Shown here: piece after piece, positions 3,807 through 59,432 of the stretch
Position numbering within the stretch: the stretch's first letter is position 1
Layout: the number at the start of each line of letters is the position of its first letter
Assembly (NCBI RefSeq): GCF_021869535.1
Contig: NW_026262668.1
Coordinates: 113,832,001 to 113,896,000 of the forward strand
DNA from: Mytilus californianus
Lineage: Eukaryota
Direction: 5' to 3'
DNA length: 64,000 bases
The notes under the pieces: model-generated
Databases searched by the model: none
Told to the model about the DNA's origin: nothing
The model's input: the letters and a program-made list of their open reading frames with translations, nothing else
Program-made: the position numbers and the translations under genes

Positions 3807-5044
3807 ACACACTCACGATTTTGTTTTGACACTGTACGGTATAATAGCGTTATAGAGTTATATCTAGTAGAAATTGTGATGACGTTACAGTAGACATCAA
3901 TAACGTCGCCGAATGTTTTTTATTCTTTCCGCTAAAAATCAAACTTCCACAGGATATAGCTTGAAAACTAGCACGGTTGCTAAGGACTTTCTTTGCACCA
4001 ATTGGTTCGTCGTTCATTTTTGAATCGCATATCGATTTTTAAAAAAATTCTGTGGACCAACGAATTAGAAAATCTTGATAAAGTAAAAATATCTGCCGAT
4101 TTTTATGATTTTCCCTATATATCCTTTGTATTTTTGGCGTATCATGCTGTTAATTTCAACAGCTTGTATCTGAAAAACGAAAACGGTTACCCCTTTTTTT
4201 TATTTTATTGTCTGATGTATTTTTACAAGCAGAATCCACATGTAAAATTAAAAAAAAATCTGTGGAATAGTTAATTACGTACACTTCGCCTTAAGTAATT
4301 TATTCATGCTCCTCGATTCAGGTAACCTTAATTAAAAAAACAGCATGAGATCACACCTGGTTTTTGTGTCTGTCCTCAAGACTGTCATAACAGACACAAT
4401 GTCTATCAAAGTTATTAATCTCATTATGTCCTTAATGCTTAAGAGTACTGTATAACAACAATCATGATTTTCAAACGCAGAACAATGATAACAAATTTGG
4501 CTTTGTAAATAATAATTAACATCTAGTTATCATTCATAATTAACATTTAATAATTAATCATCAAATCACAAAAAAAATATTTTATTTAATAAACTCCCGA
4601 ATTTTTATTAATTAAAATTTCAATATTTTGATAAATATATCTAAAAACATCTAATATTCAACCAGAATTTAAATAAAAATAGGGAGCGAACGAACCCAGG
4701 GTGCAAACGTGTATTGGGAGCAAACAGACCGGGTACCATGCAAAGGCATATTATATATATATAGAACCATAGATATAATAGACTAAGCTATTAAAAATAT
4801 ATTGAATAATTACAATAAAAATGATAAAAGTCAGCATGGTCAGAGGTTTGGGAAGTATCAGGAAAGGCCAACATGAGGTGCATAAGTCTGTGAAGAAGTT
4901 GTGTCAATTTCGACCATGATACGAGAAATATTTATAAATAAAATAGCATCCGAAGAAGTCATATTTTTTTGTTTGTAGTATTGTGTCGTGAATTGATACA
5001 CATTACCCTATCCATTTTTTTCAATTAACAATAGAATTTTGCAC

Positions 5045-5179: not shown

Positions 5180-7085
5180 GATAGCGATTGTAAAGGACAA
5201 ACCGTTAACGGTTTTTCATTTCCGAAAATTCTAAAACAAATACTACAGTATCCGTAAGGATCCCGATTTAATAGACGACAAAAGTTTAAAAGGTTCATTT
5301 CATATATCAAAATGGAAATATGACAGATAAGACTAGTTCTTCTTCTGCTTCTTCTTCTTGAGAGTATAGTCGTACTGTTTATTTCGATGTTTTATGTGAG
5401 AAAAAATATATGTGCGGATAAGTGCAAATGATCTACAACGGTGTAACTGTACATGTGATCCATTAAAATAAGTATTTGCCCGAAAGCAATATATTAGACG
5501 AATGTCCTAATTATTCTATTATCAATAAGCCTGAGCTTTTCCTTATAGACGTATTTTGACGCTTGACTATGGAGACCAGAAAACAATTGTTCAAAACGTT
5601 GACTCCTTGACTGAGTCACAGAGTTAAGTGCAATTTATTTGTCTTTTAATGTAAATATTTTATGTTGAGTGAAAGGGAAGGCATGGTCTAGAAATTATAA
5701 CTATCGAAAGACATTTTATTTCATACTCTCGAAAAAGAAGGGAAAATATCTGAATTATTTCTCCAAAACCCTTCTTAATTCAACTATCAAATCAGATGCT
5801 TAACTTGAACATTCTCGTTTTACAATTTAAATTCATAATCTGAAAATAGTGTCTAGTCGGAAATCATACACTGTACATAGCTCTAGTTCTCTCACTTTGT
5901 ATTAGAAACTGTGTAGCAGTTTATCTTTTTTGCAAAGCCTTGGCTCAATTCTAAACATTAACGGCAAGTCTGATAATGAGGCTTTTAGACATGCGTTTTT
6001 GATTTTTTTCTTAAAATAAAAGACATTTGAAGCTTTATTGTATAAATGTAATACAGAATTCAAAAATACTTTTATGTTTAAAGAATTTGACAGATTTATA
6101 ACACTTAGATATTCGAATTAAAGGGGCCAAAATTGACTATATCTAGAGTTATCTCGACAAGCAACTAAATATATTTGCCTTTTACAAACGTAATAGTCTT
6201 TTAAACTCGGAAACACTAATATGTTAATCTTCAAACATGGATACAATGTGATGTGGGAATGAGATCATAGTAATCCTGCAACGACACATTAACAAAAAAA
6301 CACGTACAGGTTAATTGTCTTCAATAATTTACAGATGTCTATCTAATATGACCATATTTAACACGGAATTTTTTTAAAAATAAATAAATAAATATGCCAT
6401 TAATATAGAACTTCACTGTTAAAATAGCGAGATCTGTTGCATTCCGATTAGAGTTCTATTAAGTTCTCGAAACTTATCATAGCAACCCTGATAAACGTTT
6501 AGTTCCTTTACACATCACAAGAACTTCCTTTTCACTTTATCAAATGTAAATAATATGGTGAAACCCCATGGTAAACATTTGAGACATAACTCAATTCAAG
6601 GTTTTTTATTTTTGTTTCGATGTAACTTGTTCAACTGCATTTTGATTTTAGTAAAGTACTTGTTAACATCACAGGGCACAAGTTTGATCTAAATCTGTAT
6701 AAATAGAAATTTCAATACCTTCTTTACATATCTTGACAATTGAAAATTCAATTTTTCAATTCGATTTAAAGACCATTCACCGTTGCTATTTACCTTATCA
6801 ACAAACTTTAAAATTTAAAAGAATTCTAATATTCAATATTTATAAGCATCACTTCATTGTATGCCTGTGAAATGAAAAAGTTATTCATTTGGATATTTAA
6901 ATTTTTCACATTAACCGAGCCAACCGTCAAAACGAAATCATTTCCATTCAAAATTTCGTTTATTTCTTTTTGCTTCGAAAGAATACTAGTTTTGTATCAG
7001 TGAGAAGTGAATTCGATATATCTACTTCAGATGTCAAAGATATTTATGTAAAACAACCTATTAAATTCAGCGTAAAATAGTCATT

Positions 7086-9203
7086 ATGTCTAAAACGAAA
7101 GGGACAGACAGTCCATCAAAATCTACAGTCCGATCCAAAACTGTGATTATGGAAAAATCTAGTTTAATCCATCGAAAATATGACGAAACTATCTTGATTT
7201 GTGGAATTTGTTCAAAATGGCTAAACACACCAAGAACTCTGCCGTGTTTGCATTCATACTGCGAAAATTGTTTGGCAACAAACATTAACGAATTCATTAC
7301 ACGAAATAGCGAAAAGAAAGATGAAAGCAGAAAATCTAGAGAGTATGAATGCCATCAGTGTAAAAAGGCCATACCACTAAAAAGTACCCCTACACCAAAC
7401 AAATGGATAGAGGGATTTCCGATCAATTATTTTCTAATGGATTTATTGGATATAGAATTATTGCGAAGAGGCGAGAAAACATGCGGACCGTGTTCTAGAA
7501 ATGGTGAAACATCGGATATATTGTCTTGGTGTAAAGAATGTCGCGATGGCCTCTGTCAGAATTGTGCCAAAGTTCACAAAGGAATGCGCATATCTATGGA
7601 TCATACAGTACTATTAAAAGAAGAGTTTATGAAAGAGATGGAATTGTTAAAAGATCTTCATGAAGAATGCAACAAACATACTGGAAAGACGCTTGATTTG
7701 TTCTGTGTGTTAGATAAAGAACTTTGTTGTCCAAATTGTATTGCAGAGGAACACCGTAGATGTGACAGAGTTATTTCGATTTCTGATGCTGTCAAGAAAA
7801 GCAAATTAGAAAAAGAGCCAGATTTTCTCAACAAAACTTTGGAGCAATACGAAAACCATATAGACGGAATGATTGGTGATCGATCAAACCACCTCATGTA
7901 CTTGGAAGAAGAAAAAACCCGACTTCTTGAAAATTTTGCATCGATACGTATTAATATCATCAATATCCTGGATAAACTTGAAAAAAATCTGAAACGGGAT
8001 ATCAGTCAAATCCACAACGCAGAAGTTAAGAAATTGCAGATAGAGATGGACATAAGTAAACGAATGCTTTTAGCTGTTTCTAACGCCCACAAGTTAATGA
8101 ATGTGGCTGAAGTACATGCTTCCGATTCTAGACTTCTGCATATGATGGAATCCATAAGAACGCAATGTATTTGGTATGAGGACGCCATGGGAAAAATGCG
8201 GTCTCAAGTCCAGGATTGTCAATATTTGTTTGAGGTGGGCCATGCTATAGAAGTTATGCAAACAAAAGTAAAAGAAATTGGTAAAATATCCGTGCGGTAC
8301 TCCCCGTCAAAATTACCGCCATTCCCAAATGTAATTTCTGTTGAACAGAATAATACCCATTCGAATCTTAATAAGTCTACTCTTTCCTTGCGTGGAAAAC
8401 GTTCAGAGATGGTAAAAACTTTCAGTGCGCATGAACATGATGAGGTAAATGATAGTTGGTTCACTGGCGCTGCGTTTCTTTCAGATGGTCGGCTAATTTT
8501 AGTTGACAGACAAAACAGAAAAATTAAGCTGTTTGCAAAGAACTATCGACAGCTTAACAGTATGAAATTCAACTCTAAACCTTGGGATGTGACAACCATT
8601 AGCCCTTCCGAGATTGCAGTGACACTTCCAGAGGAGCGAGCAATCCAAATTCTAAATGTCAGCGACATCGGGTTTTCTCTTGGAGATTATTTCATTACAA
8701 GCGAAGCATGTTATGGATTGACATATGTTCGTGGTAAATTTTTCACTCTAGCCTACGATGGATTACCACCATCACTGAAAATCCTGGATTCTGATGGAAA
8801 AGAACTGGCATCAGTTGCATATGACGACGATGGGTCACAGCTATTTTCCCGTCCAATATATATAACTGCTAACGGGAAAGGTACTATGATTTACGTTGCC
8901 GACGAACGACGTGGATCTGTAACAACACTGATTGAAACAGCAGAGCATTGTTATTCTTACTCAAGTGTAGATTTAGGACACGCAGCGGGTCTTGCTCTTG
9001 ACAATGAAGAAAATTTATATGTTTGTAGAAATCACGCAAAGAGTGTCCAAGTAGTTTCACCGGAAGGTGACAGAGTAAAGACTCTTATATCTCATGACAT
9101 GATATCATATCCTCGTGCAATCGCATTTGATGTTAATGATGAACGATTGCTTATAACACAAGGAGATAAGAGTGAGGTGAAAGTGTTCCAGTTAGTATTA
9201 TAA
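7086..9203 (+). CDS. TRIM-family E3 ligase-like protein (RING, B-box1, B-box2, coiled coil, NHL-like beta-propeller), single-exon CDS, 705 aa
   Basis: C3HC4 RING CGIC..CLHSYCENC..CHQC; B-box CGPC..WCKECRDGLCQNCAKVH..H; B-box CNKH..FC..CCPNC..HRRC; helical coiled coil; C-terminal propeller blades (GRLILVD, PWDV, YVAD, PRAIA). Confidence 0.95.
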   Translation: MSKTKGTDSPSKSTVRSKTVIMEKSSLIHRKYDETILICGICSKWLNTPRTLPCLHSYCENCLATNINEFITRNSEKKDESRKSREYECHQCKKAIPLKSTPTPNKWIEGFPINYFLMDLLDIELLRRGEKTCGPCSRNGETSDILSWCKECRDGLCQNCAKVHKGMRISMDHTVLLKEEFMKEMELLKDLHEECNKHTGKTLDLFCVLDKELCCPNCIAEEHRRCDRVISISDAVKKSKLEKEPDFLNKTLEQYENHIDGMIGDRSNHLMYLEEEKTRLLENFASIRINIINILDKLEKNLKRDISQIHNAEVKKLQIEMDISKRMLLAVSNAHKLMNVAEVHASDSRLLHMMESIRTQCIWYEDAMGKMRSQVQDCQYLFEVGHAIEVMQTKVKEIGKISVRYSPSKLPPFPNVISVEQNNTHSNLNKSTLSLRGKRSEMVKTFSAHEHDEVNDSWFTGAAFLSDGRLILVDRQNRKIKLFAKNYRQLNSMKFNSKPWDVTTISPSEIAVTLPEERAIQILNVSDIGFSLGDYFITSEACYGLTYVRGKFFTLAYDGLPPSLKILDSDGKELASVAYDDDGSQLFSRPIYITANGKGTMIYVADERRGSVTTLIETAEHCYSYSSVDLGHAAGLALDNEENLYVCRNHAKSVQVVSPEGDRVKTLISHDMISYPRAIAFDVNDERLLITQGDKSEVKVFQLVL

Positions 9204-15867: not shown

Positions 15868-18800
15868 GACAGGATCTAAGATTTTCCCTCAAACATAGGT
15901 TGAGCATGTTTTTTCAAGGATACAGTACATTTCGAATATAAATTACGAGCGACCGATATCTTGTTTCCTACCTTGACACTATTTTCGCGATATTTAATTT
16001 TTATCGGCAAGTTAATTTTTTGGTACAACAACAAATCATTCAAAACCGGCACATATTCATTTAACTCTCAATTGACCTGATAATGCAAAAGTGCACAAAA
16101 TTCTATAGAATTAAACAATGGATCAACTAATACAAAATGAAATCTTTGTAGACCAACAATTGTGATGCAGTCGGCTCTAAAAAGAAATCATATATAAATT
16201 AATGTCATTTTTTAGAAGACCACGAAAATTATTGATAAAGTGATTATATATATGGTAAAGGTACGATCATGTCTTTTGCTGAAAATGGGGTTTGGTTGAC
16301 ATTTTAACATGTCTGTCTTTATTATGTTATTAGATCGCGGCTTATTGACGTATTCAGTGTCGCCTCTAATTCATAAAAACCTTTCTTTGTAAATAACTAC
16401 GACTATTTTGGCATAAAAAACTAAAAAACTGAGAATGATATTAACACAAGGGAGTGATTCATTGACAGCACACTTGCAAGTGTTCAGTAGTGAAATAAAT
16501 CGTAAAAGATTGCTATTCTACATTTACCAGCTTGCCCTTTTCTTAAATATCAAATACTTTATGCAACGGCAAAAGATTCACATATACAGCAACCCTCAAT
16601 GACGTCCATTTGTTAAATGATTGGCTCGGAAAATCTTATCTGACTTATTGAGCTCTAAGTAGACCCCAGAATTTTAAGATTTTGAAGTATTTCCAAAGAC
16701 TATGTTTCTGTTTTCTTCCCTTTTTTAGCCACGACGTCGTTCATTATTCTTCGATTTATAATGCCACTCCGTCTTAAACTTTTAAAATATGTTTGTTAGT
16801 ATAAGCTTCATCTATCACAATAATACGTAAACTGTATTAAACGTAAATTCTGTTAATATTAATCGCTTTATACCCTACATTTTGCTATTTTGCCGCTTAT
16901 GTCGGGCTTCTATATCAACGATTTATTAATTTTAAAGTTAGACTGAAGATTCTCACTCTCTTATTACAAACCAATGGATTAGGCAAAATCTAAGATTTTA
17001 CCTCAAAAATAAGTTGAAGATGTTTTTTTAAGGATACAGTACATTTCGAATTTAAATTACGAACGACCGATATCTTGTTTCCTACCTTGATACTATTTTC
17101 GCGATATTTAATTTTTATCGGCAAGTTAATTTTTTTTGGTACGACAACCATTCGAAACTCGTCATATATTCATTTAACTCTCAATTTGGCTGATAATGCA
17201 AAAGTGCACAAAATTCTGTAGAATTAAATAACGGGTCAACAACAACAAAAATGGAATCTTGTTACACCAATAATTGTGATGAAATCCGCTGGAAAAAGAA
17301 ATCATATATAAATTATAGCCAAATTTGGCAGAACCACGAATATTATTGATAAAATGATTATATATATGGTATAGACAATATCTTGTCTGTTGCTGAAAAC
17401 CGTGTTTTGTTGACCTTTTAAATTATATGTCTTTATTATGTTATTAGGTCGTGGCTTATTGACGTATTCAGTGTCGCCTATAATTCATAAAACCTTTCTT
17501 TACTTCGACTATTTTGGCTTAAAGTACGAAAAACTGAGAATGATATTTACACAAGGGAGTGCTTCATTGACAGCACACTTGCAGTGTTCAGTAGTAAATT
17601 AAATCGCAATAGATTGCTATTCTACATTTACCGGCTTGCCTTTTTTTTCACATATCAAATACATTATGCAACGGCGAAAGATTCACCTATACAGTAATCA
17701 TCAATGACGCCCGGTTATTAATTGATTGGCTCGGAAAAATCTCATTTGTCTCATTCAGCTCTAAGTAGACCCCAGAATTTTACGATTTTAAAGTATTTCC
17801 ATAGACCATTGTTTCTCTTTTCTTCCCTTTTTTAGCCATGATGTTGCTTATTCTTCTTAGATTTTGATTGCCCCTCCGAATTGTCTTACAATTTTAAATT
17901 CTGTTTGTAAGTAAGCTTCATCTATCAGAGTTATACGTTAACTATATTAGATGTAAATTCTGTTAATATAAATCGCTTTATACTCTACATTTTGCTATTT
18001 TTCCGCTGACATCGGTGCTTCTGTATCAACGATTTATTATTTTAAAGTTAGACTGACGATCCTCACTTTCTTATTACAAACTGATGGATGAATAGATTAT
18101 GTCAAAGATGCATGACAACATATTTGTTCCCTTTTTGTAGGCTCAGTTCAGATATAATTCTCGATTTCTTATTACCAACTAATGGCAGGATCTAAGATTT
18201 TCTCACAAAAAAATGTTGAACTTGTTTTTTTCAAGGATACAGTACATTTCGAATATAAATTACGAGCGACCGATATCTTGTTTCCTACCTTGACACTATT
18301 TTCGCGATATTTAATTTTTATCGGCAAGTTAATTTTTTTGGTACAACAATAAATCATTCGGTACATATTCATTTAACTCTCAATTGACCTGATAATGCAA
18401 AACTGCACAAAATTCTATAGAATTAAACAACGGGTCAACAACAAAAAATTGAAATCTTTGTAGACCAACAATTGTGATGAAATCCGCTCGAAAAAGAAAT
18501 CATATATAAATTATAGCCAAATTTGTCAGGACCACGATAATTATTGGTTAATTGACTATATATATGGTATAGACAATATCTTGTCTGTTGCTGAAAACCG
18601 TGTTTGGTTGACCTTTTGAATTATATGGCTTTATTATGTTATTAGGTCGTGGTTTATTGACGTATTAAGTGTCGCCTGTAATTCATAAAAATCTTCCTTT
18701 GTAAAATACTACGATTCTTTTTGCTTAAAGTACGAAAAACTGAGAATGATATTTACGCAAGGGAGTGCTTCATTGACAGCACACTTGCAGTGTTAAGTAG

Positions 18801-19360
18801 TCAACTACATCGTAATAGATTGCAATTCTACATTTACCGGCTTGCCTTTTTTTCATATATCAAATACAGTGTGAAACGGCGAAATATTATCCTATACAGT
18901 AATCATCAATGACGCCCGGTTATCAAATGACTGGCTCGGAAAATCTCATCTGTCTCATTGAGCTCTAAGTTGAGCCCAGAATTTTACGATTTGAAAGTAT
19001 TTCCATAGACCATTGTTTCTGTTTTCTTCCTTTTTTGAGCCATGATGTTGCTTATTCTTCTTAGATTTTGATTGCCCCTTCGAATTGTCTCACAATTATA
19101 AATTCTGTTTGTAAGTAAGCTTCATCTATCACAATAATACTTTAACTGAATTAAATGTAAATTCTATTAATATTAATCGCTTTATACTCTACATTTTGCT
19201 ATTTTGCCGCTTACGTCGGTGCCTCTGTATCAACGATTTATTATTCTAAAGTTAGACTGACGATTCTCACTTTCTTATTACAAACTGATGGATGAATAGA
19301 TTATGTCAAAGATGCATGACAACATATTTGTTCCCTTTTTGTAGGCTCAGTTCAGATATA
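15868..19360. repeat. Three tandem ~1.1-1.2 kb units in CAP gene 1 intron 2
   Basis: Units start near 15868, 16980 and 18182, each with ATCTAAGATTTT..AAGGATACAGTACATTTCGAAT. They are colinear throughout and have no convincing ORF. Confidence 0.9.
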
Positions 19361-25322: not shown

Positions 25323-25950
25323 ATAATATTCCTTCACGATTAAACGGCATAAAAATTGACTTGAACAAAGAAACCAAATTGAAAATTCAGTTAAAAATGA
25401 AGGAATTGATATGTTCACAAACAAGCGTTGGTTGAAAATTACAGAGAGGGTCTGAGAGACGTGCTTAACATTCCTAATCAAAGACTTACGGTTCATGTGG
25501 ATCTTATAGATAAAATGGTTATGTGTTTACACCTGAATGTTTACTCTGAGTACAACAAACATGTGCAGCTGGAATAGTCTTAAGGCATAGCATGACCTAG
25601 ATAAGTAAATTCAAATGCATTTTATGTATTGGAACATAAAAAAAACTTAACTTGATTTCGCTGTCCACTTTTTTTTTCGTTATTTATATTTATATTTATG
25701 TTTATATCAGATGAAATGACGATCGGCAGTCTTCGGAGGACATCTCGAGGTTTAATTAGATAACGTCTATTCTAAAATACGCATGGAATGCTGATACATT
25801 TTAACGAGTCCAGAGATTGTAAATTGTTTCTTTTGTACTTTTTGTACATATATTGACTCCTATGACACAAAAAAGTAACATATCGTATTGGACTGTCTAT
25901 ATCTTTTGTCGCATTCTTGTCTGAGCTTTCTACTTGGCTGCATATTTTTA
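25323..25950 (+). repeat. Left copy of ~630-bp direct repeat flanking the LINE
   Basis: Matches 28103-28742 end to end, with about a dozen substitutions or small indels. Confidence 0.95.
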
Positions 25951-28102
25951 TATATCTGAAAATACGGTGGTAACAGTTTGAGAAATCACATGACAAAGCT
26001 TTTCAACTTAGTTTGTTTCAACTTTTATTCTCCCAAATCTTTGAAATCAAGTTTGATTGTCCCTTTATTTAAAGGAGGAAATAAATGTAAAAGTGATCCA
26101 ATCTCATATCGAGGAATAAGTTTAGCACCGTGTATCGGAAAAGTGTTTGATAAAATCATTGATTTAAAACTTGAATTGAAAAAAGACAACAAATGCTTTC
26201 CAAACCCACAGCAAACGGCATATCAGCAGTGTCTATCGTGTTTACATACATGATTTAATATCCATGAATCCATTTATCACCATCTTGAAAGACTAGGAAA
26301 TGTTATAGTTGTTTTACTTGATTCAACAAAAGCATTTTATACGGTTTGGCACAATGGAATGTTGTATAAACTGCTTGAATATGGAGTAACAGGAAAATTA
26401 TGGTTGCTTATAGCTAATATGTACTCGGACGCTAAAAGTGCAGTTCTTTATAATGGTCAAATCTCACGTTTCTTCCCAGTTTATCGTGGTGTTCGCCAAG
26501 GGAGCAGCTTGTCATCTAAATTGTATCTGTTATACATTAATGACTTGTTAGAAGAGCTCTCCGACTGTAGACGTGGCATACTCGTAACGGACATTCATAT
26601 TTCATCACCCGTTCAAGCAGATGCTATCGCTTTGATCAGTACTAACTGTTGTAACATGCAGACGATGGTACGAAAATTATAGCATTGATTGGAAATTTAA
26701 GTTTAACCCACTGAAATGCATTCAACTTAATTTTTCCAAATCAAAACAACATACGGATATTCTACTGTACAACAGCAGCATACAATTGGAAATTTCCGCA
26801 AGGCACGTAGGAGTGCTATTGAACAGTAACCTTAATTCTATGGACAGAACACTTCAAGCCTGCAGAACATTACGGTCTTCAGCATTAGGGTTAATCAAAT
26901 CAGATTTACATCCTTCTGTTATCAGTATTGACACTTGTAACCGTATAGTTCGTCATGTGTGTTTCACGAAAGCTTTTTTCGGATGTGAATTGTGGACCGA
27001 AATTACCAACACCGAGATTTTATTACTAGAACGTGCACAACGATATTTGTGTAAATCAATACAGGGACTACCAAGGCAAACTAGATCTGATATGGTAAAT
27101 GTGTTGATTGGCTGGAAGTCCGCCGAGTCATACATAGATGAACGGAAATTATTATTTCTTGGAAAGTTAGTGTTAATGAAAGACTCAATGCTTCCGAAGC
27201 AGATATTTCTTACCCGAGCTATGGAATTTAAATATAACTGTGTGAAACACCAGCTTGGGTTTATTCCTGAAATACATAGAGTTTTGATCAATTATAGATT
27301 GTCAGACTTTGATACTTACCTGAGTACAGGTCATTTCCCAACTTACATTCAATGGAAGAAGAAAGTCAAAGTCGCCGTCCAAGAAACCGAGGAATCGTTG
27401 TGGCGTTGCAGGACACAAATAGACAAAGATTTTAAATTCTTCAGTCGTATACATACACTTTCAAAAGGTCTTCATCCTGCTTGGACTTTTAGCTGAAAAC
27501 ATCCATTACTTATAGAACAGTGCCGTTTTATTGTCAATCTATGTACCTTAACCCGTCCATACGAAGAACCATATTTTCTGTGTGACAAATGCGGAAGGTT
27601 TTTCGGTGATATAACTATTCACATCGTACTCTCTTGTGAAACTTTCCAGTCAAAAAGGGACAAGTTTTGGTGTGATTTAATAGATATAGGTCCAATCGAA
27701 TTCAGTGCTTATCTACATAGTTTAACTGACGAAGACTTTTTAGCATGCATCTTATCATGTCATACAGACTTCGATCTAGACGAAGATGAACGGACTATGT
27801 TTCAAAAGGCCTGCATCACAAACATATACTGGATGTGTGCGACTTGAATTGAATGAATGGAACAATTTCTACATATTGGACAATAATTTGTGTAAAAGAT
27901 TTTACTGTGTGAACATTGCTACTTTCGTAGGCTGATAAACATTTAATTTTCTTCTCTGGTTACGCATTCTTCACGTTTATATATTTATGTAAAGGTTAAT
28001 TTTGATATATTGTTTGTAAATATACTGTCCTATCTTCCAACTTTACTTTCACTATCGATCTTACTAATGCTCTTCATTATTGGAGGAAATAAAGATATAT
28101 AT
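25951..28102 (+). mobile_element. 5'-truncated, inactivated non-LTR retrotransposon (RT plus C-terminal CCHC; RTE-X-like by inference)
   Basis: KYGG..LFN, YRGISL, QTAYQ, LLDSTKAF, GVRQGSSLSSKLYLLYIND, QADA (catalytic DD mutated), CDKC..H....C; in-frame stops at 26253 and 27496, a frameshift near 26680, ORF end at 27847; 3' tail AATAAAGA(TA)n. Confidence 0.9.
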
Positions 28103-28742
28103 ATAATATTCCTTCACGACTAAACTGCATAAAAATTTACTTGAACAAAGAAACCAAATTGAAAATTCAGTTAAAAATGAGTCATCAAGGGATTGATATG
28201 TGCACAAACAAGCGTTGGTTGAAAATTACAGAGAGGGTCTGAGAGACGTGCTTAACATTCCTAATCAAAGACTTACGGTTCATGTGGATCTTATAGATAA
28301 AATGGTTATGTGTTTACACCTGAATGTTTACTCTGAGTACAACAAACATGTGCAGCTGGAATAGTCTTAAGGCATAGCATGACCTAGATAAATAAAATTC
28401 AAATGCATTTTATGTATTAGAACATAAACAAAACTTAATTAACTTGATTTCGCTGTCCACTTTTTTTTTCGTCATTTATATTTATATTTATGTTTATATC
28501 AGATGAAATGACGATCGGCAGTCTTCGGAGGACATCTCGAGGTTTAATTAGATAACGTCTATTCTAAAATACGCACGGAATGCTGATACATTTTAACGAG
28601 TCCAGAGATTGTAAATTGTTTCTTTTGTACTTTTTGTACATATATTGACTCCTATGACACAAAAAAGTAACATATCGTATTGGACTGTCTATATCTTTTG
28701 TCGCATTCTTGTCTGAGCTTTCTACTTGGCTGAATATTTTTA
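28103..28742 (+). repeat. Right copy of ~630-bp direct repeat
   Basis: Begins immediately after the LINE (TA)n tail. Confidence 0.95.
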
Positions 28743-29345
28743 ATTTATATTTTATGAACAATATTGGTAGACGTTATATAGTGCTTTGGTGAAGGCTTCG
28801 ACTGAACAGACTCACGAATACTCCTAGATGTGCAGTAACTTTCATATTACAGACTCACGAATACTCCTAGATGTGCAGTAAAATTTCATATTCTCCAAAG
28901 AAACTTTGTCTGCAACGATAGTCCACTAGATCACTGGAATTGAATTGAGCTTACATTGCTTGAAAACTTTATTCATATTCTGTTTATCTGCTGGCTTTGG
29001 TTTTCTCGTTTAACTACTTTTCTCAAAACCTTCAGACTTCTATAGCAATAATGTACACCAAGCCAACTATTATCGTCCGCGACTTCAATGCAAAAGTTTT
29101 GCGATCCTTGATCAGCAAACCACTTACTTTTCAACATTTCTCGATAGATTTATAGAACTTCACATTTACAAACTTTCACATCAGGATTCATTCACATATG
29201 CTAGTCATAGTGTAACGCGCCACCGGTATGTTAGACCAGATATAAATACAATTCACGATCTTCTTAATTCTGCTAAAAGGCCGTTCGTTCAAGATAATCA
29301 TTTATAAAATGTAACTAACGATTATCCCGTTATTTGTTCGACTTA
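28743..29345 (+). pseudogene. Heavily decayed apurinic-endonuclease (APE) remnant of an older LINE
   Basis: KPTIIVRDFNAK (GDFN-like), DSFTYAS and TNDYPVIC (SDH.P-like). An N-terminal MCSWN..VLEHK lies inside the duplicated segment. Confidence 0.45.
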
Positions 29346-29699
29346 GCTAAACCATGTATGCATGCACAATGGTTTAAAGCAATTGATGACTATACTTTTG
29401 CTGTGTCGGAATATTATTGTAAAAAAAAAAGGATAAAAGGAATCGTCAAAAATTCCAGACAGTACAACAGACTAAATGAACCAACAACATCCGACTTCTC
29501 CCTCTTCCTCCCCCAAAAAACAGACATACAAACAACAACGAACAACTTATGGTCCAGACAGACTGACTTGGTACAGGACCACAATGTAACTGAGGTTAAA
29601 AACATTTTAACGTGTGTACAGCCCCCTCCTTTGTCGGTAGAAAACAAAACCATACAAAACCTTCTCAAATACTAAAGAAAAAAAAACGTTTTGCAAATT

Positions 29700-30430
29700 T
29701 CACTTTTAAATATATTGATGATATCCTGTCACTCAATAACCCACATTTCAGTAAGTAAATGTATCTCATATATCCCAGTCAACTTGAGATTAAGGATATC
29801 ATCGAAACTAAAAGGTCTACTTCATATCTTGATGTTTCCTCGATATTGACACACATGGACGACTTCAAAGTAGAAATTAGAATCTATGACAAACGGGATG
29901 ATTTCAACATTCCATTTCTTAGCAGTAAATAAACTCATCATAGATACCATGCAAGTTTTAAATTATGTACGCCAGACGCGCGTTTCGTCTACGAAAGACT
30001 CATCAGTGACGCTTGAATAAAAAACAAAATAAAAAGGCCAAATAAAGTACGAAAGGTTCAGCCAAATACAGCTAAGGTAATATATTCCTGGGGTCGAAAA
30101 TCATTAGTATTTCGTAAAAAAAAATTTGTGTAAACAGTTAATTTATGATTATGACCATATCAATGATAATTCATGTCAACACAAAAGTGCTGATTAACAT
30201 ACCCTCTGCACCATCCTATGGCGGTTACATAATTGATGCGTTACGGTCGTGCATGTTCATACTATACGGACTTCACTTGTGGGGTGTGCTCCTTTCACAA
30301 AAGTTATGAGGACGAGGAAGAGCGACTGACAACGACACTACATAAGTTTAACGGCCACCTCCACGGATTGGTTAAAAGATATATCTGCTTATTAACTCAC
30401 TACCGACATGTTTTCGCAGTTTTAAATTTT
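29700..30430 (+). mobile_element. Penelope-like RT fragment, split by a retrozyme insertion
   Basis: KYIDDILSLNN..IYP..LEIKD, SYLD, IYDKRDDFN, FLSSN | IPSAPSYG, RYGRACSYYTDF. Confidence 0.7.
29969..30012 (-). ncRNA. Minimal type I hammerhead ribozyme, intact (family A), within a 266-bp retrozyme insert (29929-30194)
   Basis: GCGUCA CUGAUGA GUCU-uucgu-AGAC GAA ACGCGCGU C UGGCGU: full core, 4-bp stem II, palindromic stem III, GUC cleavage triplet, 6-bp stem I. Confidence 0.85.
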
Positions 30431-31313
30431 ATAGATACCAGAATAGTGGTTAAATCTATAAGTATACCAATGGTGTCCTATTCCCGATAGTTTGTAAGTT
30501 CTATAAACGACATTACAAAAAAGTTGGATGAAAGCTTTAATGTAATCGCTCGTATTATAATTTTACGAGAACCATTATATTTACGGATAAGATGGTGATA
30601 CCGGCTATAGAATGTTGTGTTTAGCGCTGACAATGCCAACACAATAGCAAGGATTGAAAAAACATAGTGCATTGGGTCTTTTTATCTTGCAACAATGCAC
30701 ATTTCTTTGTTGATTAACTCGAAAGTATATTAAAATATCGAGAAATACTAAATTATTTTCATAATCAAGTGGTCATATTTATCTATTCAATTATTTCCAA
30801 ATAGCGGGTGATGAAAATATTAATATTAAAATGAGAATGGAAGAGCGGAATTTATTTACATCCTTTTTTATTTACACCCTTGATTTTGCAAGCAGTTATA
30901 TTAATGTTATATTATTATTCTCCACGATTAGGTTTAGCTAAACATAAATAACTCTTGCATAAATGATAAGTATAAAGTGTTCATGTTGTTGGATTTATTA
31001 AATGATTTTATGTAACAATATTTTAGTATTAAGTGAATCATATACAAATTAATTTGTTTTTATGATCTTGACATCAGATTGATTAAGACGGCTTTGTAGG
31101 CTCATGTTTACTTTATTGGTCATTTAGCATGAGATTTGATTTATAACTGAATTATTAATATATTTATGAAAGCTGTAGTATTTAATGCACTAGAGTAAAT
31201 ATTAAATTAACTGAGAAAATTTCAGACCTTTTTGTTCATATCCCTTTTAACTTTTAGCTCCTCAAGTATTTATTTAACCTTGGTTTTCAAATTGTTTGGA
31301 TTTGAGTGTTTTA

Positions 31314-31353: not shown

Positions 31354-32888
31354 ATCAAATTTATATTATGAAGTGGTATTGTTTTATTCTAGAGAATTAA
31401 CATATTCAATATAATATATTTGCAGAGTTTCGTTACTATTTCTAAACATTTACTGGGCGATATGAGGACTAAATATCAGATGAAATACCTCCAAAAACGT
31501 TTTATGTTTGTACAATTTGAAAAATTAAAACAACCAAAATTGTGTGCATTGTCTTTGATAAATACTATCTCAAGATACTAAGAAGAGATTACAAATTCTA
31601 GTGATTCCTTTACCGAAGAGAAAATTTTAGAAGTAAAAATGACGGATATAAAATCGGCTGCTGAACACAATAAAATATCACTATAGAATTGAGTGTTTCT
31701 TTAATTACACAATACACCTTAGATATCAAATTTAAGATCCCATATTCGGTTATGAGTATGATATATGATATTGAATATTGTCTAATTTGTTAAAGTATAT
31801 TAACCTCACGATGTTTTTGTCTTTTTTTTTTGAAGTCGTCGTGTTACTGTCTCTTTGTATATCCAACATCTCCTTTATTTATGTCTTACGATTTATGTAC
31901 ACTCGATAAAATCTATTTCATACAAGTACATTTACATGTGCATGATGATTTATGTATATACATATTCAAACACATAAACATGTACATATGTATGTATATA
32001 CGGCACACAAACATACAAACACATAAGCATGTCTATGTTTGTATATACTGAACACAAACATACAAACACATAAACATGCACATGTTTGTATATACTGAAC
32101 ACAAACATGTCATTAATGCATCGATCTCTCGATCTTTCTAACATTGATTACTTTACATATAATTGTTTTTTAAATGATATTTGATCTATATATGAAGATT
32201 AGGTAACAAGCGAAATAGTTTCACTTGGACTGTTTTTGACAAAACATGAACATAGACAAAACCTTCATTGGAAACGACTAAATGTTTACCTTACATAGTT
32301 ATAGTTTATATTGTTGCTTCACCGGTAATGTGTAAGGTATGTATATTCCTGTTTCGTAACTTTTTTCAGTTTACATGTAAAACATATAAATGTATTATAT
32401 AAAATGTGTATAAAGCATAAAATATTCATAAATAGATATTTACAGTGGCACTTTCAAATTTCAGTTATAACGTCTTTCACTTTTTTTGAACGTTGAATAT
32501 TTAATAACAATAACATTGCATAACAAACAATCTCAAGTTTTTAATATTCACTGTAATTCATTAATGAAAGAAATAACTATCAATTATGGTTTTAATTTTT
32601 AATTTGTAAACTTTCATATCAAGATTATTTAAATTATTCTATTCAAATTATTTGTATATGTTTATGTTTATTTTTTAAAATCTTTCCTACATTCTTGCAA
32701 GATGCAGTTTGTATGAGTTTTGATTCTTCTTTTGGTATCTTCCGTCTCATTTTGGTATTGAAAAGTTATCTTTTTGTAATATCACACAAGTACTTTGAAA
32801 TAACGACTATAAAGGGAATTTATACGACTTTCTTATACAGACTACACAAAAGTCACAATGGTAATGACTAATATTCCATCATCGAGAT

Positions 32889-33150
32889 ATGGGAGGAAAA
32901 TCAACTGTTCCGGAAATCAAGAAGGATGACTGGAAAGATACTGCTCTGCGTGCTCATAACAAAGTCCGCAAGCTACATAATGCACCACCTTTAAAATATT
33001 CCAAAGATCTCAGTATGTACGCTCAAAATCATGCACTTTATCTAAAAACTAAAACAAAAGTGCATAGAAGTGGTATGTACTGTCAAGGAGAGCATATTGG
33101 TGAAAATATTGCAGAACGTATTTTACCAGCATCCGTCAAAGAATATGGAG
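32889..33150 (+). CDS. GLIPR2: GAPR-1/GLIPR2-like CAP protein, gene 2, coding exon 1 of 3 (192 aa total)
   Basis: Acceptor TTATACAG at 32840; MGGKST..AHNKVRKLHNAPPL..VH..GENIA; donor G|GTATGC (phase 1), the same position as in gene 1. Confidence 0.88.
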
Positions 33151-33499
33151 GTATGCTATAAATAACTTTACAATCCTAATCAATCACTGGGGTCTCCTTT
33201 GGAATTTCAGTCAAGATGAAGAACTGAATCTTCCTTCACTGTACTTGGTATCAAAGTTACTTAAGTGTCCTTACAAACAACGTAATGTTATTAGGACTGA
33301 CAAATGCTCCACGAAACTTTCCACATTATTTTCTAGTTCATCGAAGTCAGTGTTACTGTGTAGGGTCGATGTAATATAAATACCAACAATTCCAATGATC
33401 TGTTAGAGTACATACAATCTAAATCTATTTCCAATAGTATAATAACAGTTGTCTTCTCAACCCTTTACACTACAATCATTCTTTATCAACGAACGAAAG

Positions 33500-41004: not shown

Positions 41005-41295
41005 GTAAGAGTAGAACAGAATATGGTACAAGTAAATTGCATCTCAAATAGGTCCTGTCACTGTCTTTTATCTAAGCGACTTGAGATCAGCAAATAATGC
41101 CACGCTCAAGACAGATGAAAGGGCATGCAATTCGGTGTTGGTCGTTAGTTTCTGTCTTTCATATTTGTTTTTTCGTTTATGTTTTTTCAATATTCAGACT
41201 GTATGTTTCCTGGTTTGAATGTTTTACATTTTGTCTTGTTGGGGACTTTTATAGCTTACTATAAGGTATGGGTGTGGTTCATTATTGAAAGCTTA

Positions 41296-41533
41296 GTTTA
41301 AACAATATTTATTCAGATAAATCATCACATAACGATATGATACATTTGAAATAAATATATAGGATTCAGAAACAAGCAAAGTTGCTTTTACAAATCTGTC
41401 TCCTAGTACACAATTAATACACTTAATAGGCAAAACATAAATATAGACATTGGCATGCTCTGCAATAAATATATGAATGAGAAAAAGGTGAAAAGCACAA
41501 TAGAAAAAAAAAGAAGAATAAACAAAAATATGA
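41296..41533 (-). mobile_element. 238-bp 5'-truncated retro-insertion with 12-bp TSD, splitting a dispersed repeat
   Basis: ATTGAAAGCTTA at 41284-41295 and 41534-41545. The minus strand ends AATAAAATATTGTTTAAAC, and the host repeat resumes after the TSD. Confidence 0.7.
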
Positions 41534-41744
41534 ATTGAAAGCTTAATGGTGACCTATAGCTGCCTACATTCATGTCATTTGGTGTCTAGTGAATAGTTGT
41601 CACATTGGCAATCATACCACATCTTATTTTTAAAATATATCATGTTCTATCCTCTTATGCTGAACCATTTCTATTATTTCGATCACAATTCTATTTACGG
41701 GCTCACAGATATAATTATGTCGCCGACTTGTGTCTGTGTATATA

Positions 41745-56150: not shown

Positions 56151-56284
56151 AATGCTGTGATTGAAATAGAATTTTTTTTATTTGTTTTAATTTTTTGATT
56201 TTTAATTTACATCAACAAACTTTTTTCCACTGCATAACACGAAACGAATAAACTACAGCACAATATAATTTGTCACAGTTGTTG

Positions 56285-59068
56285 GTCGACATCTGTCCAA
56301 ATATTACTGCAAGCTGCTGCTATGACAATGATAATGTAGGTCTACATCTGTCCAAATATTACTGCAAGCTGCTGCTATGACAATGATAATGTAGTTCTTC
56401 ATCTGACTAAATATTACTGCAAGCATCTCTTGTTGTTGTGAAATTGATAATGTAGGTCTATATCTACACAAATATTACTGTAATCATCTCATACTGTTGT
56501 TACAATGATAATGTGGGTCTACATCAGTCCAAATATTACTGCAAGCATCTCATGCTGTAATGACAATGGTTATGAAGGTTATATCTGTCTAAATATTACT
56601 GCAAGCATCTTGTGCTGTTGTTACAATGATAATGTAGGTCGACATCTGTCTAAATATTACTGCAAGCATCTTGTGCTGTTGTTACAATGATAATGTAGGT
56701 CGACATCTGTCCAAATATTACTGCAAGCATCTTATGCTGTTATGACAATGATAATGAAGGTTACATGTATATCTGTCTAACTTTTACTGCAATCATCTCA
56801 TACTGTTGTGACATTGATAATGTATGTCGACATCTGTCCAAATATTACTGCAAGCTTCTCATACTGTTGTGACATTGATAATGTAGGTCGACATCTGTCC
56901 AAATATTACTGCAAGCATCTCATGCTGTTGTGACAATGGTAATGAAGGTTATATCTGTCTAAATATTACTGCAAGCATCTTGTGCTGTTGTTTCAATGAT
57001 AATGTAGGTCGACATCTGTCTAAATATTACTGCAAGCATCTCATGATGTTATGACAATGATAATGAAGGTTAAATGTATATCTGTCCAAATATACCTGCA
57101 AGTATCTCATGCTGTTGTGACAATGATAATGAAGGTTATATCTGTCTAAATATTACTGCAAGCATCTTGTGCTGTTGTTTCAATGATAATGTAGGTCGAC
57201 ATCTGTCCAAATATTACTGCAAGCATCTTATGCTGTTATGACAATGATAATGAAGGTTACATGTATATCTGTCTAACTTTTACTGCAATCATCTCATACT
57301 GTTGTGACATTGATAATGTAGGTCGACATCTGTCCAAATATTACTGCAAGCATCTCATACTGTTGTGACATTGATAATGTAGGTCGACATTTGTCCAAAT
57401 ATTACTGCAAGCATCTAATGCTGTTATGACAATGGTAATGAGGGTTATATCTGTCTAAATATTACTGCAAGCATCTCATGATGTTATGACAATGAAAATG
57501 AAGGTAAATGTATATCTGTCTAAATATTACTGCAATCATCTCATACTGTTGTGACATTGATGATGTAGGTCGACATCTGTCCTAATATTACTGCAATCAT
57601 CTCAAACTGTTGTGACATTGATAATGTAGGTCGACATCTGTCCAAATATTACTGCAAGCATATCATGCTGTAATGACAATGGTTATGAAGGTTATATCTG
57701 TCTAAATATTACTGCAAGCATCTTGTGCTGTTGTTACAATGATAATGTAGGTCGACATCTGTCTAAATATTACTGCAAGCATCTTGTGCTGTTATGACAA
57801 TGATAATGAAGGTTACATGTATATCTGTCTAACTTTTACTGCAATCATCTCATACTGTTGTGACATTGATAATGTAGGTCGACATCTGTCCAAATATCAC
57901 TGCAAGCATCTCATACTGTTGTGACATTGATAATGTAGGTCGACATTTGTCCAAATATTACTGCAAGCATCTAATGCTGTTATGACAATGGTAATGAAGG
58001 TTATATCTGTCTAAATATTACTGCAAGCATCTCATGATGTTATGACAATGAAAATGTAGGTAAATGTATATCTGTCTAAATATTACTGCAATCATCTCAT
58101 ACTGTTGTGACATTGATGATGTAGGTCGACATCTGTCCAAATATTACTGCAAGCATCTCATGCTGTTGTGACAATGGTAATGAAGGTTATATCTGTCTAA
58201 ATATTACTGCAAGCATCTCATGATGTTATGACAATGATAATGAAGGTTAAATGTATATCTGTCCAAATATTACTGGAAGTATCTCATGCTGTTGTGACAA
58301 TGATAATGAAGGTTATATCTGTCTAAATATTACTGCAAGCATCTTGTGCTGTTGTTACAATGATAATGTAGGTCGACATCTGTCCAAATATTACTGCAAG
58401 CATCTTATGCTGTTATGACAATAATAATGAAGGTTACATGTATATCTGTCTAACTTTTACTGCAATCATCTCATACTGTTGTGACATTGATAATGTAGGT
58501 CGACATCTGTCCAAATATTACTGCAAGCATCTCATACTGTTGTGACATTGATAATGTAGGTCGACATCTGTCCAAATATTACTGCAAGCATCTTATGCTG
58601 TTATGACAATGATAATGAAGGTTACATGTATATCTGTCTAACTTTTACTGCAATCATCTCATACTGTTGTGACATTGATAATGTTGGTCGACATCTGTCC
58701 AAATATCACTGCAAGCATCTCATACTGTTGTGACATTGATAATGTAGGTCGACATTTGTCCAAATATTAATTACTGCAAGCATCTAATGCTGTTATGACA
58801 ATGGTAATGAAGGTTATATCTGTCTAAATATTACTGCAAGCATCTCATGATGTTATGACAATGAAAATGTAGGTAAATGTATATCTGTCTAAATATTACT
58901 GCAATCATCTCATACTGTTGTGACATTGATGATGTAGGTCGACATCTGTCCTAATATTACTGCAATCATCTCAAACTGTTGTGACATTGATAATGTAGGT
59001 CAACATCTGTCCAAATATTACTGCAAGCATCTCATGCTGTTATGACAATGATAATGTATGTCGACATC
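56285..59068. repeat. Satellite array, about 45 monomers of 60/61/65/66 bp with higher-order blocks
   Basis: Consensus CATCTGTCCAAATATTACTGCAAGCATCTCATACTGTTGTGACATTGATAATGTAGGTCGA. Two 55-bp edge monomers on the left; one orphan monomer at 59254-59314. Confidence 0.97.
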
Positions 59069-59432
59069 TTTTTTGACTAGAAGATATTTGATAAAGGTTA
59101 TACTTGAAAAACGTATCTAACTAGCTTCGTGAATAAATTACAGATCACTATTGGTAGTTATAATTGAGTGTAAGATACATTTTTTACAATTATCTTTGAG
59201 TGAAATTTTAATAATAACTGTCACATGGCCAGCATTATCATTAAAAAAAATATAATGTAGATCGACATCTGTCCAAGTATTACTGCAAGCATCTCATACT
59301 GTTATGCCAATGATATTTTATTATACTCAGTATGTTGATGACTCAGTCGTTCCTTCGTCTTCAAGCATGTTTGTATTTTTTTTTCTTTTACAGCGACGCA
59401 GCAATTGACACAGCTTCATAATAGCTGTTCAA

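Follow-up and report, generated by a model that had tools for sequence, protein, structure and literature searches.

The window (the whole 64,000-nucleotide stretch of Mytilus californianus DNA that was analysed) contains a 5′-truncated LINE, putatively of the Proto2 type, bracketed by a direct repeat of approximately 630 bp that starts at the 3′ end of the LINE and ends at its 5′ end, which is the geometry of a target-site duplication (TSD) (Table 1). The repeat claimed in the original prediction was confirmed, and its "about a dozen" differences were counted as 11 substitutions and 3 indels (7, 1, and 4 bp), with 96.4% identity over 640 alignment columns. The prediction had also placed the end of copy 1 exactly where the RT begins (25951) and the start of copy 2 exactly after the tail (28103). 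Both repeat boundaries were correct, but homology to the LINE begins only at 25954, and the first 3 nt of copy 2 (ATA) also belong to the tail, this overlap being the microhomology between target and tail that had been noted. The three extra bases at the 5′ junction could alternatively represent a 1-nt microhomology with a later 4-bp deletion. In a genome-wide comparison, in which 40 of 2,293 candidates were scored, the whole 628 bp was matched at these two places only. The 12-bp TSD cited for comparison at 41284 was found as a repeat (ATTGAAAGCTTA, at 41284 and 41534), and its attribution to a LINE is putative.

Table 1. Positions of the LINE, the repeat copies, and other features in the window
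Feature	Position	Strand	Remarks
Duplicated host DNA, copy 1 (X)	25323..25950		628 bp; continuous with the left flank
Arm of a MITE-like element (~590 bp, long inverted arms)	25486..25675		Inside X; copy 2 equivalent 28273-28467
Second dispersed repeat, fragment	25681..25846		Inside X; copy 2 equivalent 28474-28638
TAT, three extra bases at the 5′ junction	25951..25953	+	Between X and the start of LINE homology
5′-truncated Proto2-type LINE	25954..28105	+	Pfam RVT_1, E 3.6e-12; 96.6-97.8% identical to close relatives
Broken RT and C-terminal region of the LINE	25960-27847	+	
3′ end of the LINE (3′ UTR, AATAAA, (TA)5 tail)	AATAAA 28088-28093; tail 28096-28105	+	
Duplicated host DNA, copy 2 (X′)	28103..28742		640 bp; begins inside the LINE tail
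Decayed APE-endonuclease relic of an older LINE	28727..29340	+	HMM 10.1 bits, E 0.008; tblastn E 2.4e-5 on a 7-kb region
43-bp tandem duplication within the APE relic	28806-28881		
Decayed RT-like relic	~29690-30490		No Pfam match for 30233-30490; possibly Penelope-like, judged by eye
Open frame with CAP (cysteine-rich secretory protein) domain	32868-33161		E 9.6e-9; likely a host exon, 4 kb from the insertion
Three tandem units	15870-19360		About 1.1-1.2 kb each, 85-90% identity
12-bp direct repeat around a 238-bp insert	41284-41545		In a dispersed repeat
Tandem array	56280-59069		About 60-bp units

The duplicated DNA includes approximately 190 bp of the MITE-like arm and approximately 165 bp of another dispersed repeat. 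It had been described as a decayed APE relic that continues after copy 2. Such a relic does lie past copy 2, but it shares only the final ~16 bp with the repeat, its start being close to where the duplication ends on the right. A further ORF1 or APE relic sought inside X did not rise above shuffled sequences (135/300, 160/300, and 185/300).

The RT of the window LINE was recognizable as such in a broken reading frame, and in the near-full-length relative L051 an APE domain lies upstream of it; together with the AATAAA signal, the simple-repeat 3′ tail, and variable 5′ truncation, these are the features of an APE-type LINE. L051 (about 5.6 kb) has a 619-aa ORF1 frame followed by an APE-RT frame with Exo_endo_phos and RVT_1 domains, corresponding to the two-ORF, about 5.7 kb layout of Proto2, for which the published mean length is 5,675 bp (PMC10294476). 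Furthermore, the RT motifs of the related loci L096, L127, L121, and L120/L124 match rows M.edulis_292, 260, 230, and 154 in Table S7 of that study, all labelled Proto2, and the window copy sits in the same 55-row branch of a quick tree as these motif-matched families. By motif match to labelled rows, rather than by a joint tree, the window LINE is thus assigned, as a sequence-based placement, to the Proto2 clade. Proto2 rows often carry RTE-X in the RepeatMasker-type labels in the tables of the same study; the GVRQGENLSP-type RT motif of RTE-X is not that of the window element and marks the control set described below. The named protein relatives of the element were mostly from Mytilus.

A fixed 5′ end at 25954 common to the relatives was rejected as a query artefact; the relatives extend upstream. 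The window copy and L052 are truncated within about 4–13 nt of each other, but with 6 ends such a coincidence has a chance of about 0.10, and it was not used as evidence. Both truncations lie ~30 nt past an internal AATAAA, beside CA (L051 about 5310–5344), and with the same chance in mind they could reflect internal poly(A) cleavage.

The 630 bp might also have belonged to the element itself, whether as its 5′ part, as a pseudo-LTR, or through tandem insertion. Nothing in favour of this was found, and its probability is close to negligible: the segment was absent from all relatives compared, L051 has ORF1 and APE upstream instead, and one animal resembles an empty allele (see below). X is also not element sequence common to copies, as the terminal repeats of LTR, DIRS, or Penelope elements would be.

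Contigs of five sequencing runs (X1–X5) were aligned to the window locus, and the left-flank junction of X was present in contigs of all five. In X3 (study P1), a contig crossed the 5′ junction (25647–25989) and included 39 letters of the LINE; in X1, X3, and X5, the contigs over the tail junction covered 26 letters of the LINE, fewer than the 31-letter bridging rule demands. Run X1 forked exactly at 28103 and 28742 and had a 56-nt tail-junction contig, while X3 had both junctions and, where the repeat starts, carried the same letters that distinguish the copies. Since X5 resembles the reference and may be the animal behind it, it was left out as support; two animals from a study other than that of X5 had LINE/X junctions in contigs. 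Run X2 was unbroken across 28742 and had no depth at 25941 or 28134–28138, which fits an empty allele with a single X and no LINE, as a pattern of depth and continuity with no spanning contig. In the flanks, alleles differed at 13 of 4,918 bp (8 listed contig pieces), compared with 1.75% between copies 1 and 2; therefore, the copies are not simply two present-day alleles. When the other alleles were taken as an outgroup, roughly half of the substitutions appeared to be new in each copy, an estimate derived partly from differences per contig.

These junctions bear on the proposition that the assembly had produced a false duplication at a heterozygous insertion. At two loci of the survey described below (L130 and L137), the repeats are 99.9% identical, as such an artefact would allow, and all 11 of its positive loci are known solely from the assembly. 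At the window locus, the copies differ at the sites counted above, X3 carries both junctions with copy-specific letters, and X1 forks at precisely the predicted positions. Misassembly of the window locus is thus very unlikely.

The contigs also bear on a two-step history, in which the LINE inserted without any duplication and a later tandem duplication of the LINE end and X was followed by crossover with an empty allele (or by inter-allelic rearrangement) to give A-X-LINE-X-B, where A and B are the flanks. Run X4, in which the 5′ junction was implied and no tail junction was visible, would suit this history, as would site 25415, which appears variable among other alleles too. Tandem duplications that hold LINEs do occur in the genome, namely at L054 and in the L102 region, and TSDs are missing in most family members. 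The L054 duplication (G000:C94:4016440-4023716; 3,638 bp, 99.97% identical, holding a truncated family member) is either very recent or an assembly artefact. However, left-flank contigs passed 25323 unforked in X1–X5, so no A-LINE allele was seen, as far as contigs, which show presence rather than absence, can indicate.

To place the window locus among its relatives, 60 of 150 RT matches were picked by eye for long open frames; in a quick tree, 51 of these rows (50 loci) fell in the branch of the element and 9 in a sister branch, a sequence of whose type is labelled Proto2 in Table S7 (PMC10294476). At 11 of the 50 loci, belonging to 7 families, a locus-unique direct repeat extended from the tail to the apparent 5′ end of the element, lying within ~0–24 nt of that end, which at L127 and L120 is not fixed by any sister copy. 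The repeats measured 274 bp (L127), 308 bp (L141), 476 bp (L086), ~600 bp (L110), 1,022 bp (L137), 1,115 bp (L130), 1,206 bp (L139), 1,367 bp (L131), up to 1,442 bp (L096, an upper bound because this locus lies in a 111-bp tandem repeat), 1,616 bp (L129), and ~4,170 bp (L120), with a median of about 1.07 kb when the window locus is included. The elements at L129–L131 have a 5′ end in common, at which three separate repeats end, one per locus. The 11 tested segments had only interspersed-repeat fragments in common with other loci. L102 and L116 were left out of the count as ambiguous, the former (308 bp) lying within nested segmental duplications and the latter (56 bp) in a minisatellite, and a 16-bp repeat at L054 was excluded as lying in low-complexity DNA. 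No long duplication was found among the 9 sister-branch loci; with 6 RT-bearing relatives added, the count becomes 11/56 (95% interval 11–32%), and counting the sister branch in or out gives 11/50, 11/56, 11/59, and 11/65. Long target duplications thus occur at about a fifth (about 17–22%) of the related copies surveyed in the M. californianus genome.

Flanking duplications measured in relatives, as the original prediction had proposed, gave a different outcome in the window copy's own family: 0 of 24 other loci had a long duplication, many of the 5′ ends there being uncertain, and 4 of the 24 were rechecked with 8 kb more upstream sequence. Most relatives had no detectable TSD, and for this reason the short TSD, against which the window duplication had been compared, is the wrong baseline. 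Apart from the long cases, the only tail-anchored exact repeats of 12–60 bp were one in a minisatellite host and one A-rich chance match, in a search whose automatic tail finding was imperfect and missed L137–L141.

The age of the repeat was compared with that of the insertion. The window LINE carries 19 private substitutions over 2,140 bp (0.89%), and twice this divergence predicts 11.2 differences over the 628 sites of X, compared with the 11 observed. Across ten loci (the window locus and L102 included; L086, L120, and L127 not among them), repeat divergence rose with element branch length (Spearman 0.87, p = 0.001). The repeat and the insertion are thus of the same age, as had been predicted. 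The summed repeat differences (73) were fewer than twice the branch-length estimate (136), with the shortfall mostly at L129 and L131. The two-step history can yield the anatomy of one locus, but it predicts neither breakpoints at the common 5′ end of the full-length L129–L131, nor recurrence at 11 loci, nor divergence that tracks element age; we consider it improbable.

As a control, 40 of 150 matches of another clade were examined, 39 of them distinct (L215 and L216 are the same and were counted once). This clade was first labelled CR1-Zenon, a label rejected because its type is labelled RTE-X in Table S7 (PMC10294476). Among the 39 there were no clean and 2 ambiguous cases: L203, with a 291-bp repeat (4358–4648 and 7465–7759) that ends at the 5′ end and starts 237 bp after the tail, possibly representing a 3′ transduction plus a long TSD, and L205, with a 152-bp repeat in a minisatellite. 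The contrast between Proto2 and RTE-X gave Fisher p = 0.002–0.006 for clean cases and 0.03–0.12 when the 2 ambiguous controls were counted, figures to be read with the clustering of loci in families; clade specificity of the long duplications is accordingly suggestive. At G000:C1:75607600-75653868, ten RTE-X-type RT matches follow one another, mostly at intervals of about 4,850 bp; this is possibly a LINE tandem array.

The age match, the junction contigs, the absence of the 630 bp from every relative, and the same geometry at 11 more loci support the view that the duplication was made in the insertion event, and we regard this as very probable. The fuller explanation, that the LINE lies between copies of host DNA duplicated with its insertion and that the same happens at about a fifth of related copies, is only a little less secure. 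Under this explanation, the APE endonuclease would nick the target at the left boundary of X, where a few bases of microhomology with the microsatellite tail would prime reverse transcription. In the absence of a nearby second cut, the upstream end would be lengthened across X by repair or replication synthesis, with the intact strand or the sister chromatid as template, or a distant break might be captured in place of this extension; the end would then be joined to the cDNA by microhomology or with extra bases. At most 3′ junctions a few further bases of the tail unit followed, which is what priming of the nicked target on the tail would produce, and the 5′ junctions showed microhomology of 7 nt at L137, about 4 at L131, and 3 at L086, with extra bases at L129 and L130. 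Of the two mechanisms originally suggested, a second cleavage measured about 630 bp away is unlikely given sizes that range between 274 and about 4,170 bp, while repair-mediated insertion would fit better.

In a variant of this explanation, the Proto2 protein rather than the host would act: the end of the cDNA would jump downstream by hundreds to thousands of bases, and from there the RT would proceed by strand displacement back to the first nick. Both template jumping and strand displacement are known for the RT of the LINE R2, 7 of the 11 cases are in elements of 4.8 kb or more, and the RTE-X control, in the same host, lacked any clean case. However, the broad range of sizes resembles host-repair-dependent outcomes of L1, and the clade contrast weakens once the ambiguous controls are counted. 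We therefore hold the protein-driven variant to be possible but rather unlikely, and lean slightly towards a replication or repair route over strand displacement by the RT.

Once made by the preferred insertion-linked route, the two copies of X would behave like LTRs, and unequal crossover between them would generate X-LINE-X-LINE-X arrays or clean excision. At L086/L087 (G000:C2:64249137-64260284), such an X-LINE-X-LINE-X arrangement is present, with an X of 476 bp and units 99.5% identical, and it is the product expected from unequal crossover between long TSDs; clean excision is the predicted reciprocal product.

The RTE-superfamily element Rte-1 of Caenorhabditis elegans reportedly makes target duplications of ~200 bp, which are shorter than those in the mussel. 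For engineered human L1 in cultured cells, duplication of 100 bp to several kb of target has been reported, with a median of 1,495 bp in NER-deficient cells, and a distant second nick was proposed; such large TSDs made up at most 10% of insertions in HeLa cells and 57–91% when NER was defective (PMC5223499). The mussel duplications likewise bracket the element, but they are natural and inherited, occur at about 17–22% of copies, and belong to a non-L1 clade. The zebrafish element ZfL2-2 gave one 1,228-bp TSD in chicken DT40 cells (1/25 in wild-type cells), short TSDs being dominant (PMC2666801). Its junctions, like those of the mussel LINEs, have microhomology or extra bases, whereas in the mussel, as far as imperfect tail finding can tell, tail-anchored repeats of 12–60 bp are nearly absent. 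Tandem duplications of 1–10 kb in tumours and L1-induced clones have been regarded as large L1 TSDs and attributed to break-induced replication or sister-chromatid bridging (PMC7058536; bioRxiv 10.1101/2024.12.14.628481); these are somatic and rarer than deletions, whereas the mussel case is standing germline variation. Bivalve TSD-(SINE-TSD)n arrays have been attributed to unequal recombination between TSDs (PMC11481361), and the L086/L087 array is similar, but its repeated unit is 476 bp rather than 6–18 bp.

The bivalve Proto2 elements described in PMC10294476 agree with the mussel elements in RT motif, in length (~5.5 kb), and in their tail and 5′ motifs; the main text of that study mentions target sites once, for SINEs, and does not describe long TSDs. 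In the main text of a 2026 preprint on bivalve structural variants, "TSD" and "target site" do not appear. In the literature on the Proto2, RTEX, and RTE families (including PMC1291365 and PMC10294476, with subscription papers and Repbase reports little represented), no report of long TSDs as a routine trait was found. Long TSDs are known as a rare or repair-deficient outcome for L1 and L2; as a regular outcome in a natural family they were not found in the literature covered.

A wild family with kilobase duplications offers a natural sample of how LINE integration is completed (second strand and 5′ joining) and a system in which the contributions of host repair and element enzyme can be tested against each other. 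Annotation pipelines that seek TSDs of tens of bp would miss long ones or call them segmental duplications. Through such insertions, exons or regulatory DNA could also be duplicated locally, LINEs could come to lie in tandem arrays, and insertions could be cleanly lost, all of which matters for structural variation among bivalves. It is tempting, though still doubtful, to see Proto2 as a natural clade whose normal integration copies about 0.3–4 kb of host DNA and gives each insertion private LTR-like ends. If this is true, Proto2 elements would be routine local duplicators whose insertions can be reversed or amplified by recombination, and they would feed the hemizygosity and presence-absence variation of bivalve genomes.
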